Of a stretch of DNA of 64,000 nucleotides, positions 4,227 to 12,825 are shown in pieces; positions within the stretch are counted from its first letter, which is position 1, and every line of letters starts with the position of its first letter. The position numbers and the translations under genes are program-made. This stretch comes from Acidobacteriota bacterium. Lineage in GTDB: Bacteria > Acidobacteriota > UBA890 > WLXD01. The stretch covers positions 368,366 to 432,365 of the forward strand of contig CAXWPL010000003.1 in assembly GCA_963666215.2 (NCBI GenBank), read 5' to 3'. The notes beneath the pieces are model-generated. The model ran no database searches. It had not been told where the DNA came from and worked only from the letters and a program-made list of their open reading frames with translations.

Positions 4227-5653
4227 TTAGCTCGCTGGCTGCTGCTGGCTGGCGCAATGCATGCCGCCACCGTAGTAGTTGATCCCCAGCGTATGGAGCT
4301 GGACGATCTCGCGGTCGGGGAACAGCTCAGCGAAGATCTCGCGTGCCCGCTCGTCCTTCTGCCTTTGCGACTCGGGCATACCCTCCTGCCAGTATTTCGG
4401 GATCAGCACGAGCCCGTTGGTGACCAGGTAGTTGAGGTAGCTGGCGGCAGCCACCTGGTACATCGTATCGCCCGGCTTCAGGCCAGCGGCGTCGAACTCG
4501 CTCTTGCCGCGCTCGTAGCGCTCCTCGGTCAGCGTGTATTCGCGCCGCAACGGATCGACCTCGGGTAACGCGATACGAATGATCTCGAAGAGGTTGCCAT
4601 CTTGGTCGGTCTGCTGCCGCAGCGCGAGCAGGTTGTTCTCCAGCACGTCGTAGTTGAGCTCGTTGACCGGGTTGTCGTGGCGTTCCGCCTCCGGCACTTC
4701 GGCAAGCAAGATCGTCGACGAACCCACAAAGCGGGCGTACTCATCGAGATGACCATTGGCTCCACCGCCCGTGTAGTTGGCCGCAATCGGGCCAGGAAGC
4801 CAGAGGTCCTCGACAAGCGGCTCGGGCACCCAGACGATCTTGCGCTGCCCCATGACTCGCAGATATTCGGTTTCGATCTCCTCGAGCGAGTGATCCGGGT
4901 TGCGCTGCAGAGTGGTCCAGCGGGTCACCATCAAGGTGCCGCGGCCGTTGACCGTCATGCCGCCACCCTCCCGGTCGAGATCACCTCGAGGCCGAGCATG
5001 TCGGCGACGTAGCGGTCGGTGTCACCGGTCAAGCGCCGACGGCGGGCACGCTCCGAATCTTCATCATCGTCGGTCTGGCTCGCCCGGCCGTAGCTCGTCC
5101 AGCGGAAGTCGACGACCTTCGTGTCTCCGGCGCTGTTGCGCACGAACAGCGGGCCAGGGTCGCGCATCCAGAAGTAGGGCAACTCGTGGACGTGGAGCGA
5201 GACGCGACTGCCCCAGGCGCCTTCGGCGCGTAGACGCTCCTCGGCCTCGACCGCTGCATCCTCGGACTCCACGAAGACCTCCACATCAACATGGTCGCGG
5301 AGCACACGCACCATCTCGACGGTCATCGCGTTCATCGTTACCTTGCGCTCCGAGCTCCTGCCGCCGAGCCCCTCCCCTACCCAGGCCACCCAAACCGCAT
5401 CGTGAGGCTCCCACTCCGCTGGAAAGCTATAGTGCTCGGGATCGACGACAGCCTCGGGCTCGGCGGGCGGGATTCCTTCAGAGGAGCCCGCCGGGGCGGC
5501 GCAGCCGACCGAAGCCGTCGCGGTGAGAACCACAACCGCCAGGCCAACCGCCATCGATCGCCGACTCGCGCCCATTGCCGTCTCCATCGCCCGAGCACAT
5601 CCAGAACCGCCCCAGCGCCTCAGCCCATCGGACATCTTGTATCCCCTCGTCAA
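4227..5653 (-). pseudogene. Agmatine deiminase/PPAD-family lipoprotein, split by a frameshift near 4970
   Basis: The N-half has FPAEWEPH and WMRDPGP; the C-half has EGGGMTVNGRGT, GHLD and catalytic GGGMHCASQQQP. The halves are in different frames. May be an assembly error. Confidence 0.88.
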
Positions 5654-5803: not shown

Positions 5804-6550
5804 CTAGAAGCGGGGCTCTCGCGTGAAGAGATAGCCGGCGCCGCGCACGGTGTGAAAGTGTTGCGGCCGATGCGGATCCGTCTCGAAGCGGCGCCGCAGT
5901 CTCAGGACGAAGTTGTCGATCGTGCGATCGGTGGGATAGAAGCCCGCACCCCACACGCGGTCCAGGATCTCGTTCCGCGACACCACCTCGCCCTCACGGT
6001 CGGTCAGGAGTCGCAAGATCGCGGCTTCCTTGCTGGTGAGAAAGTGCTTGGCGCCGTCGGGACCGCGGCCGACGTAGCGCACCAAATCGACCTCGCTTTC
6101 GCCAAACGTCAGCGGCGGTGGCGGATCGGAGTCAGACGGTCGGCTGCGCCGCAGAATCGCCGCCACGCGCAAGAGCAGCTCCTCGAGTCGGAAGGGCTTC
6201 GGCAGGTAGTCATCGCCACCCGCGGCAAGTCCCCGGATGCGATCGTCGGGATCGCTCCGGGCGGTCAGAAAAAGAACCGGCACCTCGTTGCCCGCCTGCC
6301 GCAATCTCTCGCACACCGAGAAGCCGTCGAGCCCCGGAAGCATGACGTCGAGGACGATGAGATCGAAGCGCTCGCCGGCACGCGCCAGTGCATCGATACC
6401 GTCGTGCTCCACCGCCACCGCATAGCCTTCAGCCTCGAGGTTGCTGCGGATCTCATCCGCTAGGCCGGGCTGATCCTCGACGACGAGCAGCCGGCTGGCA
6501 ACGCTCTCGCCTGCGGACCGACTCACGACGGTGGTGCCGCGAGCGGCCAA
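5804..6550 (-). CDS. OmpR/PhoB-family response regulator
   Basis: LLVVEDQ, DLIVLDVMLPGLDG, FLTA, DDYLPKPF, winged helix TVRGAGY. The exact start is uncertain. Confidence 0.95.
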   Translation of the reverse strand: MAARGTTVVSRSAGESVASRLLVVEDQPGLADEIRSNLEAEGYAVAVEHDGIDALARAGERFDLIVLDVMLPGLDGFSVCERLRQAGNEVPVLFLTARSDPDDRIRGLAAGGDDYLPKPFRLEELLLRVAAILRRSRPSDSDPPPPLTFGESEVDLVRYVGRGPDGAKHFLTSKEAAILRLLTDREGEVVSRNEILDRVWGAGFYPTDRTIDNFVLRLRRRFETDPHRPQHFHTVRGAGYLFTREPRF

Positions 6551-7614
6551 CGAACCTCGAACGTGGCACCGTGTCCGTGACCCGGTGACGTTGCCGTGAT
6601 GCCACCATCGGACAGAACGACAACTTCCCGAGCGATGTGCAAGCCCAGGCCAGCACCGCTGCCGCCGCGGCGCAGCTCGTCCCCGGGTCGGTAGAACTTC
6701 TCGAACAGCAGATCGACATCGTCGGGATCGAAGCCGCAGCCGTTGTCGCGAACGACAACAGAGACGTCGTGCGCGCCGCGTGTCGCGTCAACCGACAAGC
6801 GGGGCTGCTCGGTCTCCAGCAGGGCCTCCAGCGCGTTGTCGAGCAGGTTGCGCATGACAGCTCGCAGCGCTTCGTCGTCGGCCATGACCCAGAGGTCGCC
6901 AGGAAGGTCGACGGAGAGATCGACTCCGGCCTCGCCGCAGTTGTCCTCCAGGTTGCGCATGACCGGTGCCAGAGCCTCCTGGAGGTGGAGCGCGGCCGGA
7001 CGCAGAACGAAGCGTCCCTCGCCTAGACGGACCGTGTCGAGCAGGTTGCTGATCATCGACTCGAGCCGCAACAGGTTGCGCACGATCCGCGACGTCTTGA
7101 CGCCGCGTTCTTCGGGGGCAAGGTCGTGTCGTTGTAGGCCCTCGGCCGCGAGCAGCGCCGTTGCCAATGGGCTCTTGAGCTCGTGGCTGGCCGCTGCCAA
7201 GAAGTTCTCTTGTCGCCGTCGCAGCACGGCATCCTGTTGGACCGCCCGCGCCACGACACTCACCGCGCCGAGCAGGACGAGCAGAAAGAAGCCCCCCTCC
7301 CAGCCGTATTGGTTCAATCGGTGCCAACGCTCATCTGCCTGTGCGGTGTCGCGCTGTGGATCAACAATCACGCGGCGACCGTCAACTCGAATCGCCGGCA
7401 GCACCCTCTCGACCGCCGAGGGTGTCTCTCCGAGCTCGAGAAGCCGCTCGGCGGCTCTCACCTGTTCCTGGTCCGAGCGGTCTGCGCGCTCCTCCACCAG
7501 GGCGATGAACCGCCACTGATCGAGCATCCACCAGGCTACCTGTGCCGCGCTGATGATCAGCAGCACACCGAGCCCGATGCTCAGAAAGCGAGTCGTACGG
7601 CGTTTTGTCGGCAA
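6523..7614 (-). CDS. Sensor histidine kinase (2 TM, HisKA + HATPase)
   Basis: SHELKSPL H-box, NLLDNA N-box, DNGCG, FEKFYR, GAGLGL; two TM helices around a short periplasmic loop. Confidence 0.95.
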   Translation of the reverse strand: MPTKRRTTRFLSIGLGVLLIISAAQVAWWMLDQWRFIALVEERADRSDQEQVRAAERLLELGETPSAVERVLPAIRVDGRRVIVDPQRDTAQADERWHRLNQYGWEGGFFLLVLLGAVSVVARAVQQDAVLRRRQENFLAAASHELKSPLATALLAAEGLQRHDLAPEERGVKTSRIVRNLLRLESMISNLLDTVRLGEGRFVLRPAALHLQEALAPVMRNLEDNCGEAGVDLSVDLPGDLWVMADDEALRAVMRNLLDNALEALLETEQPRLSVDATRGAHDVSVVVRDNGCGFDPDDVDLLFEKFYRPGDELRRGGSGAGLGLHIAREVVVLSDGGITATSPGHGHGATFEVRWPLAAPPS

Positions 7615-7706: not shown

Positions 7707-10700
7707 CTAGAAGCGCACCGTGGTACCCAAGCGAATATCGCGCCCAATGCCCGGCGTCCCGAAGCGCGCATTCTCGTAGCTGCGATCGGCCAGGTTACTG
7801 ATCGCCAGGTGCAGCTCCAACGGCTGCCCGGCGACCCCAGTGGCCCAGGTTGCCTGGAAATCGTGGAGCACGTAACCCGCCGTCGCCTCGACGCCCGTCG
7901 GCACGCGATCACGATCGCCGTAGATGCGGGTGAACCAATTGGCGCGCAGGCCGAGCTCCGGCCGGCGCCACTCGGCTCCGAGAACGAGCTTGTCGTTGGG
8001 AATCTGCAGCAACGGCTCTCCAGTGGCGTTGTCCTCGCCACGAGTCCGCGAGAACGATCCCCGCAGAACGATGTCGCGCTGCGGACTCAGGTCAACGGAG
8101 GCTTCGAATCCCGTCATCTGGGCGTCGAGGCGATTGGTCGCCTGCCACAGCTGGATCTGAGTGCCTCCGGTCACAGGAAACTCCGAAGTGAATACCGGCA
8201 GCAGCTCGATGAAGTTCTCGACGTCCGCACGCCACAGCGAGGCACGCGCCGAAACGCGCCCACGACGGAACCTCAGGCCGCCGTCGAAGTTACGGCTGGT
8301 TTCGGCGACAAGATCCTCGTTGGGCAGAAACAGCGCCAGAAAAAAAACGTCTTGCGTCAAGGGAAAGGCGAAGTGGGTGCCCGTCAGGAAGAGCTCCTGG
8401 AAGAAGGGCGCACGGAACCCACCGCCGTAGCTGGCCGAGGCGAAGAGACCCTCACTGAGCTGGTAACTCGCCCCCAACTTGGGCGAAAGGCGATCGACCT
8501 TCTGGGAGCTGAGCTCGACAAGGTCCGGCTTGCTGTTCCAGCGGTCGTAGCGCAGGCCAGGAACCACCGACAGTCGTCCGTCGAACAGCGACAGCTCGTC
8601 TTGCACGAAGGTGCCGAGCTGCGTGCGGCTGCCCGACGGGAAGAATGCGTGGGCATCGCCGTTGCGAACGGCGTCCTGGCGCTCCTGCACGAGCTCGAAG
8701 CCGTAGGTGACGGCGTGCGAGCCGCCCACGAGCGCCGTGTTGCGCGCATCGATGCCCCAGGTGCGGTAGCCGATGTCGTCAACGCGACCGTCGGCGATCC
8801 GGGACTCGTCGATCTTGGTCTCGTTGACGTAGACGGTGGCGTTGAGGCTGTTGTCCCACCAGTTCTCCCCTGTGCGGGTGTAGCGCGCGTTGACGCCCGC
8901 CGAGCGAGTGGCGCGGTCGATCAACTCGGCAGCGCCGACATCCATCAACGCGAGGTTCGTTGACGATCTGCCTTTCTGGCGAAAGTAGTTGCCCGAAAGG
9001 CGCAGCAGGCCGGAGCTACCGAGCGGCGTGTGCAGGCGGGCGTTGAAGTCGTTGATGTCCTCCTCGGCCTGTTCCAGATTGGACTGGACGCCGGCAATCT
9101 GAATCGAGCCGTCGTTGCGCCTGCCGGTGTAGGAGGCCATCCAGCTGAGGCCCGAGTCGGACCTACCGTAGAGACGAGGAGCGACGGTCCACTCGCCGTA
9201 GGCCGACGAGTAGGTCGAGCGCACCTGAGCGCCCAGGGTCTGGCGCGGATCGAGCAGGTCGCCCGGCGCGCGGGTGGTGATCGAGATGACGCCACCGATC
9301 GCCCCCGAGCCATACAGCGCTGAGGCCGGACCCTTGACGATCTCCACCTTCTCGATGTCATCGGTGTCGAAGAAATACGTGCCCCGGTGACCCGAGTTGA
9401 ACTGCGCCACACGAGCTCCGTCGCGGAGCGTGAGGATTCGCTGGTCGTCGAAGCCACGGATGTTGGGCGTTTGCCCGAGGCGTCGAGGCGACTCGCTCAT
9501 CTCGACACCCGGCTCATAGCGCAGCACGTCATCGAGCCCACGCGCCTGCGTGCGGTCGAGATCATCGCGATCAATCACCGTCACCTCGCCAGGCACCCCG
9601 AGCGTGTCGCGCTCCGTGTGCGTTGCCGCCACCGTGATGCGCTTGGAGTAGGGCGCCAGCTGCAGCTCCACGTCGAGGTTCAACGAAGATCCAGAGGAGA
9701 TCTCCACGGCCTGAGCCCAACGCCGGAAGCTGTCGACATCGACCACCACGAGGTACGTGCCTGGACCGACCTGTTCGAAGCGAGCCAGGCCCTCCTGGTT
9801 GGTCGTACGTGAGATCACCTCGTCTCCCAATCTCAGCGAGACGGGTATCGATGGCGCCAACCGACCGTTGGGTGAGTAGACGGTCACCTCGACGATGGCT
9901 GACTGTTGCGCCTGCGCGACGGGAGCCACCGACGCCACCAGCATCACAGCGCCCACGACGGTCGCGGCTGTTCTGACCGCGGGTCGGGCCGGCGACGGCG
10001 ACCGTCGTCGAACGTTGAGCCAGTAACCGGTCCAGATCAGGAGGATTCCGATGATTTCCATGACGTACAAGACCTCCGTGCGCCCCATGCGACTGGCCGC
10101 ACCGCCGATGCCCGGCAGAATTGCGCCGGATGCGATGAACACGTTGCCGACGAACCGATCGCGGGCAACAACAGCACCGCTGCCGTCCCCCCGGGACGCG
10201 CGGTAGAAACGCCAAGCGGAGTAGATGGCTCCGCCGATCAGAAAGATCACGGCGTAGGTGTTGATGAAGGGGCTGAACGCCCGTACCCATTGCCAGGCGA
10301 ACGCGCGTCCACTCGGCAGGTGGGGGTCCACCACCGCCATGTTGATGGGGCTGGCGATCACGCACGCGGCGGCGACTGTGACCACCGACACCAGAGCGAT
10401 CGTCAGGCGCCGCGCTACCCGCGGTCGAAGCAGCAGCCAGACCGTTCCCTGCGCCAGCGGCGCACCCCCGAGGAGAGCCCCGACCACGTACCAGAACTTG
10501 AACATCACCGGGCTCCAGCCGAAGAGCGTGAACCAGCTCTCCGCAAAGGTCCCGAGCCCGTAGACGAGAATGCCAGCGCTCCACCAGAGCAGGTGGTTAC
10601 CGCCACCCCGGTACAGGTAGCGGCGATACACCACGACGGCAAACACGAACGAGATCACGGTCGTGGCGATCGGTAGGTAGTGAACAGCGGTGGGTTGCAT
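7707..10700 (-). CDS. Fusion of a 7-TM membrane domain, internal signal peptide and TonB-dependent heme/hemoglobin-type receptor
   Basis: aa1-230 has seven hydrophobic helices; aa231-264 is RRR...VVGAVMLVASVAPVAQA; then a carboxypeptidase-regulatory-like domain, plug (NIRG, SGHRG, KGPASALYGSGAIGG), FRAP...GTHF...PNEDL and a C-terminal Phe. Confidence 0.9.
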   Translation of the reverse strand: MQPTAVHYLPIATTVISFVFAVVVYRRYLYRGGGNHLLWWSAGILVYGLGTFAESWFTLFGWSPVMFKFWYVVGALLGGAPLAQGTVWLLLRPRVARRLTIALVSVVTVAAACVIASPINMAVVDPHLPSGRAFAWQWVRAFSPFINTYAVIFLIGGAIYSAWRFYRASRGDGSGAVVARDRFVGNVFIASGAILPGIGGAASRMGRTEVLYVMEIIGILLIWTGYWLNVRRRSPSPARPAVRTAATVVGAVMLVASVAPVAQAQQSAIVEVTVYSPNGRLAPSIPVSLRLGDEVISRTTNQEGLARFEQVGPGTYLVVVDVDSFRRWAQAVEISSGSSLNLDVELQLAPYSKRITVAATHTERDTLGVPGEVTVIDRDDLDRTQARGLDDVLRYEPGVEMSESPRRLGQTPNIRGFDDQRILTLRDGARVAQFNSGHRGTYFFDTDDIEKVEIVKGPASALYGSGAIGGVISITTRAPGDLLDPRQTLGAQVRSTYSSAYGEWTVAPRLYGRSDSGLSWMASYTGRRNDGSIQIAGVQSNLEQAEEDINDFNARLHTPLGSSGLLRLSGNYFRQKGRSSTNLALMDVGAAELIDRATRSAGVNARYTRTGENWWDNSLNATVYVNETKIDESRIADGRVDDIGYRTWGIDARNTALVGGSHAVTYGFELVQERQDAVRNGDAHAFFPSGSRTQLGTFVQDELSLFDGRLSVVPGLRYDRWNSKPDLVELSSQKVDRLSPKLGASYQLSEGLFASASYGGGFRAPFFQELFLTGTHFAFPLTQDVFFLALFLPNEDLVAETSRNFDGGLRFRRGRVSARASLWRADVENFIELLPVFTSEFPVTGGTQIQLWQATNRLDAQMTGFEASVDLSPQRDIVLRGSFSRTRGEDNATGEPLLQIPNDKLVLGAEWRRPELGLRANWFTRIYGDRDRVPTGVEATAGYVLHDFQATWATGVAGQPLELHLAISNLADRSYENARFGTPGIGRDIRLGTTVRF

Positions 10701-10788
10701 CGAGAGCTCCCTAGAACGGCGTCGTACGACGACTTCGGTTCTTTACGAGCTCTGATTGAACCAACGCGGCGGGGCCGCTATGTCATCC

Positions 10789-11319
10789 CTACGTCACGAG
10801 ATCGGAATCTCGATCAACGCCGTCTTTCGCCGCCTCGCTGGCGTCGGTAGCGATCGTCAGCTGCGCCTCGGTGGGAGCATCGAACTCCAGCCTGATCGAG
10901 TCGCGCTGCAGCAGGAAACGGGTCCACAGCCCTAGGATCGTGCCGAAGGGAACAAACAGGCACAGGAGAACCACGGCGATACGGCAGAACCGATAACGCT
11001 GGCGACGCTGGATGAAGAAGCTGGCGCGCAGAATCGTCACCGACCACCAGATCACGAGTATCGCGAAAATCGTCGTCAGCGAAGTCGCGACCAGATCGAT
11101 GAGCGCCACCAGCAGGCTCTCGGAGCCGAGAGTGCTCAGCGCGCCCAGCATCGGGCCGCACATCAGCAGGCCCATGAAGATGAAGAAGGCCCCGATCACC
11201 CGCATGACAAAGACCATGTTGCGCAGGTGACCGTGCAGACTGCTCGGTCGCAGGTTCATATGAAGAGCTCCTTGGCGGTCGAGGAGACTAGACTGGCGCT
11301 TCCCGAAACCATCGAGCAA
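10789..11319 (-). CDS. Hypothetical membrane protein (3-4 TM)
   Basis: Hydrophobic helices and a CLFVPFGTILGLWT motif; the true start may be ~11260 (MNLRP). Confidence 0.7.
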   Translation of the reverse strand: MLDGFGKRQSSLLDRQGALHMNLRPSSLHGHLRNMVFVMRVIGAFFIFMGLLMCGPMLGALSTLGSESLLVALIDLVATSLTTIFAILVIWWSVTILRASFFIQRRQRYRFCRIAVVLLCLFVPFGTILGLWTRFLLQRDSIRLEFDAPTEAQLTIATDASEAAKDGVDRDSDLVT

Positions 11320-11333
11320 CTGGCGATCTGTCC

Positions 11334-11731
11334 GTGCAACGAAACACCCTTAACCGGAAGCTAGCCGCTGCGGCAACCGTCGGCAACGCTCTCGCCCTCC
11401 TCGCCACGGCTTGTATACCCAGCGCCGACCCGGGCTCCCCGGCCGACCATTGGCCCGGATTCCTCGGGCCCACGGGGATCGCGGTAGGCCATCATCCGGA
11501 CCTGCCGGAATCCTGGTCGGCGTCGCAGAACATCGAGTGGAGCGCGGAGATCCCGGGCAGGGGCTGGTCCTCGCCGGTCGTCTGGGGCGATCGAGTCTTC
11601 CTGACCGCCGAGACCAGCGAGCAGACGCTGAAGGAGCCGGGGTTCGGTGTGGACTTCGGCAACGAGTACATCGCCGAGCTCCTCGCCGAGGGGCGCAGCG
11701 AGGCCGAAGCCTCCGATATGGCCGACGCCCG
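11334..11731 (+). pseudogene. N-terminal fragment of a PQQ-like beta-propeller (BamB-type) lipoprotein
   Basis: LATAC lipobox, HWPGFLGP, LPESWS..NIEWSAEIPGRGWSSPVVWGDRVFLT; family resemblance stops abruptly at ~11731. Confidence 0.8.
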
Positions 11732-12168
11732 CCGGCACGCTGTCGCTGCTGATGGCCGATCTCGACGGCGACCATCGCCTCGACGCTGTCCACGGGCAGG
11801 GCGAGAATCCCGCGGCTATCGAGGAGAAGATCTTCCTCGGCAGCGGGCTGGATCCCGATACAGCGCCGCCTGTCGTGGCGCGAGTCGAGGCCGAGCTGAA
11901 GCCGGTCGATGGGCGCCAGGCGCTCCGGATCCGAGCCCGTGTCCATGATCGTAAGAGCCCGACGATGCCCCACGACTGGCAATCGGTGACCCTGCGCTGG
12001 GCTCAGGAGGGCAGCGAGGAGGAGATCCCGATGACCTGGTATGGCGAATACCTGTGGTTCGCCGAGATCCGTTCCGAAAACCTTTCCGGGATCACCTACC
12101 GTGTCTGCGCCATCGACGCGGCCGGCAACCAGTCGTGCTCGAGCCCCCACTCCGCGGAAGGGACATAG
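11730..12168 (+). pseudogene. C-terminal fragment of an FG-GAP/VCBS repeat protein
   Basis: LLMADLDGDHRLDAVHGQGE followed by an Ig-like tail (DTAPPVV...PMTWYGEYLW...VCAIDAAGNQSC); no N-terminus. Confidence 0.65.
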
Positions 12169-12175
12169 CACAGCT

Positions 12176-12244
12176 CACCTGGCCCATACCGCCCGCACCG
12201 AGGGGCTCGAGCAGACGGTAGGGCCCGAGGGTTTCGCGATGCAT
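12176..12244 (-). pseudogene. N-terminal remnant of a Ser/Thr protein kinase
   Basis: Hand translation MHRETLGPYRLLEPLGAGGMGQV matches Hanks kinase subdomain I; similarity is lost afterwards. Confidence 0.75.
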
Positions 12245-12249
12245 GGGCG

Positions 12250-12825
12250 TTAGCTCTGGGTTCTTTGCGAGAAGAACAGCGTTTCGGTGACGCGAATGTC
12301 GTCCGCAGGACGCTCGGCGCTGACGCTCTCGAGCGTCTCACCGGTTTGCGGATCTTCGAAGAGGATCGTCCAGCTGCCGGGATGCGGGTTGAAGACACAC
12401 TCAGGGAAGACGATGTGGTGGTGCCAGTGTCGGTCGTGAGCACTGAGCTCCGCAGCCCGTCGCATCATCGCAATGACATTCGGTGAACAGATCTCGAGCT
12501 CGAGATCCTCATCCGTTGAGGGATTCGTCGATCGGTCCGCCGGCCGGTGCCGTGACGCGAGCGGATCCACGCCGTGCACCAGAGTCGCCAGCCGGCGCCC
12601 CACCTCCATCATCGGCTCGTCGGAATAGACGACGTAGACCTCGCCGCGATCGGACGCCTCGACGACAAGCGCACACTGCGGACGGTCGTTGAGCCTGCAG
12701 TCGGTCGACAGCACATGGTTGTGCCAACGCTCACCGCTTGCCGCCAGCTCGTCACCGAGCTCGAGCAGCCGATCCACACTCACCTCGATCACGTCAAAGT
12801 CGCTGAGGGTCTTCACAAAGAGCAC
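12250..12825 (-). CDS. Hypothetical protein with a duplicated WHxH-x5-C domain
   Basis: Two aligned halves, RWHNHVLSTDCRLN and HWHHHIVFPECVFN; AGGAG RBS. Confidence 0.8.
   Translation of the reverse strand: MLFVKTLSDFDVIEVSVDRLLELGDELAASGERWHNHVLSTDCRLNDRPQCALVVEASDRGEVYVVYSDEPMMEVGRRLATLVHGVDPLASRHRPADRSTNPSTDEDLELEICSPNVIAMMRRAAELSAHDRHWHHHIVFPECVFNPHPGSWTILFEDPQTGETLESVSAERPADDIRVTETLFFSQRTQS

Follow-up and report, generated by a model that had tools for sequence, protein, structure and literature searches.

How can an outer-membrane receptor be made from a gene whose first 230 codons specify a seven-helix protein of the inner membrane, and what would the two proteins have to do with each other? 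The question is raised by an open reading frame (ORF) on the minus strand of a 64,000-nucleotide (nt) stretch of an Acidobacteriota genome (assembly GCA_963666215.2, contig CAXWPL010000003.1, positions 368,366 to 432,365), which as a whole is called the window here. In this ORF a seven-transmembrane (7-TM) domain, a segment resembling a signal peptide and a TonB-dependent heme receptor follow one another without a break. An earlier note, made from the letters of the sequence alone, had proposed that signal peptidase I (SPase I) cuts the product in two. On the evidence set out below, we consider it probable that a single precursor is indeed cut by SPase I into an inner-membrane 7-TM protein and an outer-membrane heme receptor.

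The fused gene and its parts

The ORF starts with an ATG and runs uninterrupted through 997 amino acids (aa) to its stop codon (protein P0001), as the earlier note had described it. Its parts, in the order in which they are translated, are these:

7707..10700, minus strand: the whole fused ORF, 997 aa plus stop, with a counterpart in the genome G003 and covered by four assemblies over 9000-10800
10707..10711, minus strand: a Shine-Dalgarno-like GGGAG, 7 nt upstream of the start codon at 10700, read from the sequence
10011..10700, minus strand: the 7-TM inner-membrane domain, residues 1-230, with seven helices predicted by AlphaFold2 and without a Pfam or NCBIfam match
9972..10010, minus strand: the basic, predicted cytoplasmic linker or n-region, residues 231-243 (RRRSPSPARPAVR, five Arg), read from the sequence; predicted local distance difference test (pLDDT) below 50 in the full-length model
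9909..9971, minus strand: the predicted h- and c-regions of the internal signal peptide, residues 244-264 (TAATVVGAVMLVASVAPVAQA), with a like segment in 65 of 65 receptor fusions
9660..9899, minus strand: a CarboxypepD_reg beta-sandwich, residues 268-347 (PF13620, E 3.9e-8; AlphaFold2 strands within 268-345)
9621..9650, minus strand: the TonB-box region, residues 351-360 (RITVAAT...), aligning with TMTVTAT at the N-terminus of the ChuA/ShuA chain
9288..9599, minus strand: the Plug domain with His438, residues 368-471 (PF07715, E 2.3e-31)
7710..9236, minus strand: the beta-barrel, residues 489-997 (PF00593, E 1.5e-46), with FRAP at 762, His776, PNEDL at 793 and Phe997

The ORF is a genuine, conserved fused gene and not an artefact of assembly, because four assemblies lack any indel at the junction and a second genome keeps the fusion at 62.9% identity. 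The window lies in a 4.65-Mb assembly of 5 contigs, and the region 9000-10800 is spanned in one piece by Logan contigs from four runs of four studies (one of them possibly the source sample) with 0-1 substitutions and no indel, so that the join around 9900-10050, where the earlier note had allowed for a misjoin, is sound in independent assemblies. No RNA dataset was listed as containing this stretch. The second genome, G003, belongs to the same family and encodes a 1004-aa ORF of identical layout; there too the fused ORF is followed downstream by genes for a kinase (51% identity) and a response regulator (63.5%).

The AlphaFold2 model of residues 1-230, built with 110 homologues, is confident (pLDDT 92.4, predicted TM-score 0.89) and contains seven transmembrane helices, at residues 5-30, 35-60, 64-90, 93-116, 137-169, 174-203 and 208-230, of which the third is kinked at a conserved GGAPLAQGT. 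The basic loops to which the earlier note had drawn attention, RRYLYR after the first helix, RPRVARR after the third, RFYRASR after the fifth and the RRR tail after the seventh, are all found in the window protein. Across the same 110 homologues, lysine plus arginine average 15.9 over the four predicted cytoplasmic regions (loops 1-2, 3-4 and 5-6 and the C-terminal tail) versus 4.5 over the four predicted periplasmic ones (the N-terminus and loops 2-3, 4-5 and 6-7). Because of this asymmetry, the domain is predicted to have its N-terminus outside and its C-terminus inside, which is the topology that the note had put forward. The window protein matches the invariant residues of the family, including H36, W40, E54, W70, R140, N147, Y212 and E215 among others, and Y149 and R204 are nearly invariant. 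Judged from the alignment and the helix bounds rather than from three-dimensional coordinates, the conserved polar residues E54, R140, N147, Y149, R204, Y212 and E215 are predicted to lie in the periplasmic halves of the helices or in a periplasmic loop.

Behind this domain, residues 231-264 read VRRRSPSPARPAVR-TAATVVGAVMLVASVAPVAQA and are followed by QQ. Five Arg fall in VRRRSPSPARPAVR; past it comes an uncharged stretch of 19 residues, TAATVVGAVMLVASVAPVA, and then QA|QQ, with the predicted SPase I cut after A264 (AQA|Q), between nt 9909 and 9908. The sequence thus has the n-, h- and c-region layout of a Sec signal that had been claimed for it, in a segment of the primary translation product that is not N-terminal and stands behind the 7-TM domain. 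The full-length AlphaFold2 model, for which 62 fusions were aligned, has a pLDDT of 86 and three confident modules; residues 236-265 have a pLDDT below 50 and no secondary structure, and the segment is therefore part of neither fold. In its position, its uncharged stretch and its small-x-small site, it resembles the N-terminal signal peptide of the receptors at three related loci where the two genes are unfused (L108, L111 and L112). As the note had also maintained, the receptor does not appear to have a ribosome-binding site and start of its own: reading the linker DNA of the window by eye, we saw no Shine-Dalgarno-like run, and the only in-frame start-type codons are GTG, GTG and ATG at codons 250-253, all of them inside the hydrophobic stretch.

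Profile and motif comparisons identify the remainder, residues 265-997, as a CarboxypepD_reg domain plus a complete ChuA/ShuA-type heme TonB-dependent receptor. Pfam bounds in the protein are 270-347 for CarboxypepD_reg, 368-471 for Plug and 566-970 for the TonB-dependent barrel, and residues 354-997 match TIGR01785, the family of TonB-dependent heme/hemoglobin receptors, with 383.2 bits against a cut-off of 316.85 and over profile positions 3-677 of 677. The motifs are where the note had placed them (SGHRG at 436, with H438; FRAP at 762; H776; PNEDL at 793; the terminal F997). In the alignment, H438 and H776 fall on the GH and FRAP..HF motifs of ChuA/ShuA, and PNEDL falls on PNPNL, all of which supports the heme-receptor identity of HemR/HmuR/ShuA type first assigned to it. 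In ShuA, the heme ligands are His86 and His420, and the aligned histidines would have a ligand role. Within the TonB-box region, residues 350-360 have a pLDDT below 50 in the full-length model, and T356, V357, T358, A359 and T360 vary little or not at all across the 62 fusions. Both histidines are retained only in the window's own group, which has seven fusions; a large second fusion group has Arg at the plug position, and the insert with the other His is absent.

The fusion is not confined to the window and G003. The search with residues 1-235 returned 81 long proteins (548-1745 aa), of which 65 combine the 7-TM domain with Plug and barrel, the window's own included, which leaves 64 further protein clusters with the same 7-TM, signal and receptor layout; two more fused genes occur in the genomes G136 and G170. 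These 65 clusters hold a frame of about 1000 codons open down to 29-34% whole-protein identity. In all 65, a linker past the seventh helix (median 3 Lys/Arg versus 1 Asp/Glu) leads into an uncharged stretch of 10-29 aa (median 19) with a small-x-small site at its end, so that the internal signal-like segment is a kept feature whose residues are unconserved and whose character is retained. The residue at +1 of the predicted site is Gln in 35 of these proteins, Asp in 8 and Glu in 5. A preference for Gln at +1 (the Q-rule) is reported in PMC5837995 for Bacteroidetes and not for related phyla.

The other 16 long proteins join the 7-TM domain to FecCD (2), HmuY (1), GDPD (1), MMPL/RND (1) or COX1-like (11) partners. 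The HmuY partner (P0190) opens with a lipobox signal, LSAC, and the GDPD partner (P0160) with a signal peptide, and the FecCD (P0132, P0138) and MMPL/RND (P0192) partners start with their own first transmembrane helix. All five of these partner types, the receptor included, hence begin with a segment that is necessarily N-in/C-out. As a separate observation, the COX1-like proteins P0193-P0203 (about 1053-1075 aa) end in a distant copy of the 7-TM domain (about residues 830-1057, E 1e-22 to 1e-28 against the profile of the family); 10 of the 11 have a heme-copper-oxidase subunit I domain (PF00115), and P0198 is without a Pfam entry.

In the mechanism that we favor, the 7-TM domain would be the first part to enter the inner membrane, leaving its N-terminus on the periplasmic side and its C-terminus on the cytoplasmic side. 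Residues 231-264, with their basic linker and their hydrophobic stretch, would then act as an internal Sec signal and start the export of the remaining 733 residues, and SPase I would cleave after AQA264. The released chain, beginning QQSAIV and consisting of CarboxypepD_reg and the ChuA/ShuA-type receptor, would be assembled into the outer membrane by BAM, the machinery for beta-barrel assembly. The product left in the inner membrane would comprise residues 1-264, with the signal helix still attached as its eighth, which the earlier note had not mentioned.

The seven-helix family and its partners

As a stand-alone protein, the 7-TM domain is common. More than 6400 stand-alone matches of 129-412 aa were found (counted as clusters at 90% identity), the best at 80% identity to the window, and the family comprises 1423 representatives (at 50% identity) at E<=1e-3; stand-alone members have a polar tail and end 5-25 residues past the seventh helix. 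In the genome of the window itself, there is a weak partial match to residues 145-227 (G000:C4:611594-611818, locus L002; 44% identity, E 3e-9), which falls within a 199-aa open frame.

The family is without a name in the databases searched. Residues 1-235 have no Pfam match even at E<=10 and nothing better than E 0.13 in NCBIfam, and a sequence-profile search of the PDB with the 7-TM domain returned no match. Foldseek against the PDB found only generic bundles of G-protein-coupled receptors and rhodopsins (best E 9e-3, TMq <=0.61), and the ESM Atlas yielded only unnamed clusters, the nearest named one being HisKA_7TM with a score of 0.83. Homology to HisKA_7TM (PF16927) was considered and found unsupported, with no Pfam match at E<=10 and an hhalign probability of 5-12%.

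In the 80 closest genomic loci, all with stand-alone 7-TM genes, the usual order is receptor first and 7-TM gene second on the same strand. A heme-type receptor, that is, one whose best NCBIfam match is a heme family, lies upstream across a gap of at most 200 nt in 35 of the 80, of 200-1500 nt in 16 and farther away in 1; together with L077, which was first mis-scored owing to an over-long ORF and has a receptor upstream too, this makes 53 of 80. In 20 of the 80 there is no receptor upstream although there is room for one, and 8 are truncated by the end of a contig. Where the gap is the wider one (16 loci), an extra gene stands between receptor and 7-TM gene, and its neighbor cluster is found in 15 loci. 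This intervening gene is HmuY-like in three of them: those of L021 and L029 match the HmuY part of P0190, and that of L014 matches Pfam HmuY.

With the fusions to receptor, HmuY and FecCD, this synteny bears out the suggestion of the earlier note that the 7-TM family is tied to heme-type receptors, of which it is a conserved partner. At the loci examined in detail, receptor and 7-TM gene are accompanied by a two-component system and an ATP-binding cassette (ABC) importer is absent, which suggests that the 7-TM protein is an inner-membrane heme permease or acceptor. Most likely, then, heme or another tetrapyrrole is handled by this family at the inner membrane, either in the role of a permease or in that of an acceptor facing the periplasm. 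The window's own genome (a 92%-complete assembly) has no match to heme oxygenase (PF01126) or HemS (PF05171) and has one strong FecCD permease gene, elsewhere than at the window locus; these results neither back nor rule out a permease role.

The two-component system is itself the ground for another interpretation, in which the 7-TM protein would be a signalling receptor akin to the 7-TM sensors of histidine kinases and a partner of the adjacent two-component system, not a handler of heme. Directly downstream of the fused ORF lie:

6523..7614, minus strand: a sensor histidine kinase with two transmembrane helices, HisKA and HATPase_c, syntenic in G003 (51% identity)
5804..6550, minus strand: an OmpR-type response regulator downstream of the kinase, syntenic in G003 (63.5% identity)

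Histidine kinase genes likewise adjoin the receptor/7-TM pair in 40 of the 80 loci, weak HisKA_7TM matches occur in 5 of 38 distant family members (best E 2.9e-5), and the named Atlas cluster mentioned above is of the same kind. We nevertheless regard a signalling role as unlikely, since comparing the family by hhalign with 12 true HisKA_7TM domains gave probabilities of only 5.4% and 12%, PF16927 has no match in the window's own genome at E<=10, the window kinase has two transmembrane helices and a periplasmic loop of its own, and the fusion partners of the 7-TM domain are uptake proteins, not kinases. Two-component systems stand next to the receptor/7-TM genes in lineages that are not related to each other, being of HisKA/OmpR type in the window and G003 and of GAF-HisKA_3/LuxR type in a Gemmatimonadales locus (L037, 3190-5627).

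Two further features of the window lie near the fused gene. The gene for a peptidyl-arginine/agmatine deiminase of Porphyromonas type (PF04371), at 4227-5653 on the minus strand, is broken into two ORFs with a 4-nt overlap, profile positions 2-113 being in 4955-5653 and 136-321 in 4227-4958; this may be a frameshift or a pseudogene. For the upstream ORFs at 10789-12825, no family was found in Pfam or NCBIfam.

One chain or two

The favored mechanism holds that the receptor is obtained from the fused chain. It could also be translated separately from an internal start codon, in which case the read-through fusion would be a minor or irrelevant product. The unfused relatives do have a Shine-Dalgarno-like run and an ATG right before the signal peptide, several fusions keep Met followed by Lys or Arg at the start of the signal segment, the fusion at L110 has an internal in-frame ATG, and the window has its GTG, GTG and ATG in frame. 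For the window itself, these codons lie inside the h-region, so that initiation there would give a signal without a basic n-region, and no Shine-Dalgarno-like run accompanies them; its receptor can therefore come only from the fused chain. The same holds for the fusion at L109, whose linker has neither a Met nor a Shine-Dalgarno-like run, and G003 has no Met before the h-region. Since a frame of this length has moreover stayed open in 65 clusters of such divergence, we judge separate translation of the receptor to be improbable.

Alternatively, the chain might never be cut, the hydrophobic stretch being an eighth transmembrane helix that tethers the receptor to the inner membrane, where it would be non-functional or have some other role. 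We infer the cleavage from sequence features; AlphaFold2 gives residues 236-265 no structure, and some of the predicted sites have Pro at +1, all of which leaves room for an uncut chain. Such a chain would, in contrast, have only about 3 residues between A264 and the first strand of the beta-sandwich, and where the supposed eighth helix has its equivalent in unfused receptors (L108, L111 and L112), that segment is an ordinary signal peptide at the N-terminus. The window protein also retains its TonB box, plug, 22-strand-type barrel, both histidines and C-terminal Phe. Because this retention would be unexpected in a barrel that never reaches BAM, permanent tethering is disfavored and in our view very improbable.

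That the fusion is an artefact of assembly or sequencing, or a recent inactivating accident and thus a pseudogene in the making, is scarcely credible: the deiminase gene at 4227-5653 is broken into two frames in the same assembly and deletion remnants of such fusions are known in other members (P0018, P0045), yet four independent assemblies agree without an indel, G003 retains the fusion at 63% identity together with the downstream genes, and every receptor motif is intact.

Unfused relatives reveal how a cut precursor of this kind could come about. The fusion arose by loss of a stop codon in a tightly coupled pair of genes with the 7-TM gene first, because unfused relatives of that order are split by a single stop or an ATGA overlap. 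At L111 and L112, the 7-TM and receptor genes are in one frame with a single TGA between them, followed by a Shine-Dalgarno-like run and an ATG; at L108, they overlap as ATGA (4 nt). In these three pairs, the genes thus have the 4-nt overlap or a spacing of up to 24 nt. In a tree of the 7-TM domain, L108, L111 and L112 fall inside a large fused clade (59 fused and 3 unfused members, support 79), and the fused state requires at least 12 changes over the 282 rows, whose sampling is biased, the fused rows having come out of the search for long proteins. Within the window's own group, fused genes are interspersed with stand-alone ones, and two members (in G006 and G010) have a true stop after the 7-TM gene and no receptor nearby. 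Read-through of the TGA at L111 and L112, for its part, would yield a fused chain.

A sample of another class, in which 11 of 151 genomes have the 7-TM family, contains the two fused genes of G136 and G170 and three unfused ones with the order 7-TM then receptor. That only 2 of the 5 genes of this order are fused in this unbiased sample is one of several observations that weigh against the reading that we favor. In P0018 (315 aa) and P0045 (338 aa), the 7-TM domain and a signal-like segment are followed by no more than the final 60-90 residues of the barrel; they look like remnants of fusions after internal deletion, and fused genes therefore do decay. The fusion may be neutral rather than selected. 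Fused and unfused states alternate among close relatives, so that stop loss may have brought the 1:1 stoichiometry as a side effect that is tolerated, not selected for. The Met followed by Lys or Arg in several fusions and the ATG of L110 mean that the receptor could also be started internally in some members. The small-x-small criterion, by which the cleavage sites were recognized in all 65 fusions, is weak in Ala-rich sequence, and a simple picker chose a site with Pro at +1 for 5 of the 65. As to function, the 7-TM domain has no sequence or fold relative of known function in Pfam, NCBIfam, the PDB or the Atlas, and its fusions to FecCD permease disfavor a self-sufficient permease and suggest that it works with an ABC permease in some lineages. 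Lastly, ten partner or neighboring receptors were scored, and the best match is heme-family for 9 and B12-type for 1, in no case reaching the cut-off; because of this, "tetrapyrrole" may be a safer word than heme outside the window's own group.

With these points taken into account, cleavage of the window's precursor by SPase I remains the reading that we think probable. A much broader proposition combines two claims, namely that several phyla routinely make a TonB-dependent receptor and its inner-membrane partner as a polyprotein cut by SPase I, and that the 7-TM protein is the missing non-ABC inner-membrane permease for heme (tetrapyrrole) in minimal modules of receptor and 7-TM protein. Such two-gene modules occur in Gemmatimonadota, Acidobacteriota, Fidelibacterota and relatives, and we put the two claims forward jointly only as a doubtful, tentative possibility.

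Comparison with known systems

The usual picture of an outer-membrane barrel is of a protein that has its signal peptide at the N-terminus and is exported post-translationally. Here, ribosomes would get to the complete heme receptor only after making and inserting a seven-helix protein of the inner membrane. Because the receptor stands behind the 7-TM domain, it would have to be exported co-translationally, by means of an internal signal peptide. Cleavage, if confirmed, would broaden the known range of SPase I and of the Sec/BAM route and provide a natural device for 1:1 expression. The fusions and the synteny also offer a first clue to the function of a 7-TM family that is very large and unnamed, pointing to heme uptake in lineages that lack a gene for an inner-membrane heme transporter next to the receptor. 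In the portion of the literature available to us, we found no account of a TonB-dependent receptor made as a polyprotein or with an internal signal peptide, of a 7-TM protein in heme uptake or of this 7-TM family.

One comparison is with the unfused pairs of relatives, which consist of the same two families on the same strand, with the 7-TM gene first (L108, L111, L112) or the receptor first (e.g., L037). In these pairs, unlike in the window gene, there is a stop codon and the receptor starts on its own. The Porphyromonas-type hmuY-hmuR locus likewise has a heme-type receptor with an adjacent HmuY, and the order receptor, HmuY, 7-TM is seen in L014, L021 and L029; the Hmu locus as described is not known to include a 7-TM gene.

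Among solved structures, the best matches of the receptor half are the heme-hemoglobin transporters ChuA, ShuA and PhuR (PDB 9dhe, 9dir, 3fhh and 8the). Plug and barrel are alike over their full length (phmmer E 4e-44 to 2e-43), and the predicted structure superposes with a Foldseek TMt of up to 0.89 (0.88-0.89 to ChuA/ShuA). The TonB box, the plug GH, the FRAP..HF..N-x-x-L series and the terminal aromatic residue of ChuA/ShuA align with those of the window receptor. In contrast to these receptors, the window protein has its signal peptide behind a 230-residue 7-TM domain and a CarboxypepD_reg domain before the TonB box.

For the arrangement as a whole, the nearest parallel is FbcH of Bradyrhizobium japonicum, reportedly a precursor of cytochromes b and c1 that is cut at an internal signal peptide, with the cleavage said to have been demonstrated, whereas for the window we infer it. 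The likeness extends to a polytopic inner-membrane part that ends in the cytoplasm, an internal signal and an exported partner from the same pathway, all in one ORF. The second product of FbcH is said to stay at the inner membrane; that of the window, in contrast, would be an outer-membrane barrel that crosses the periplasm and is folded by BAM.

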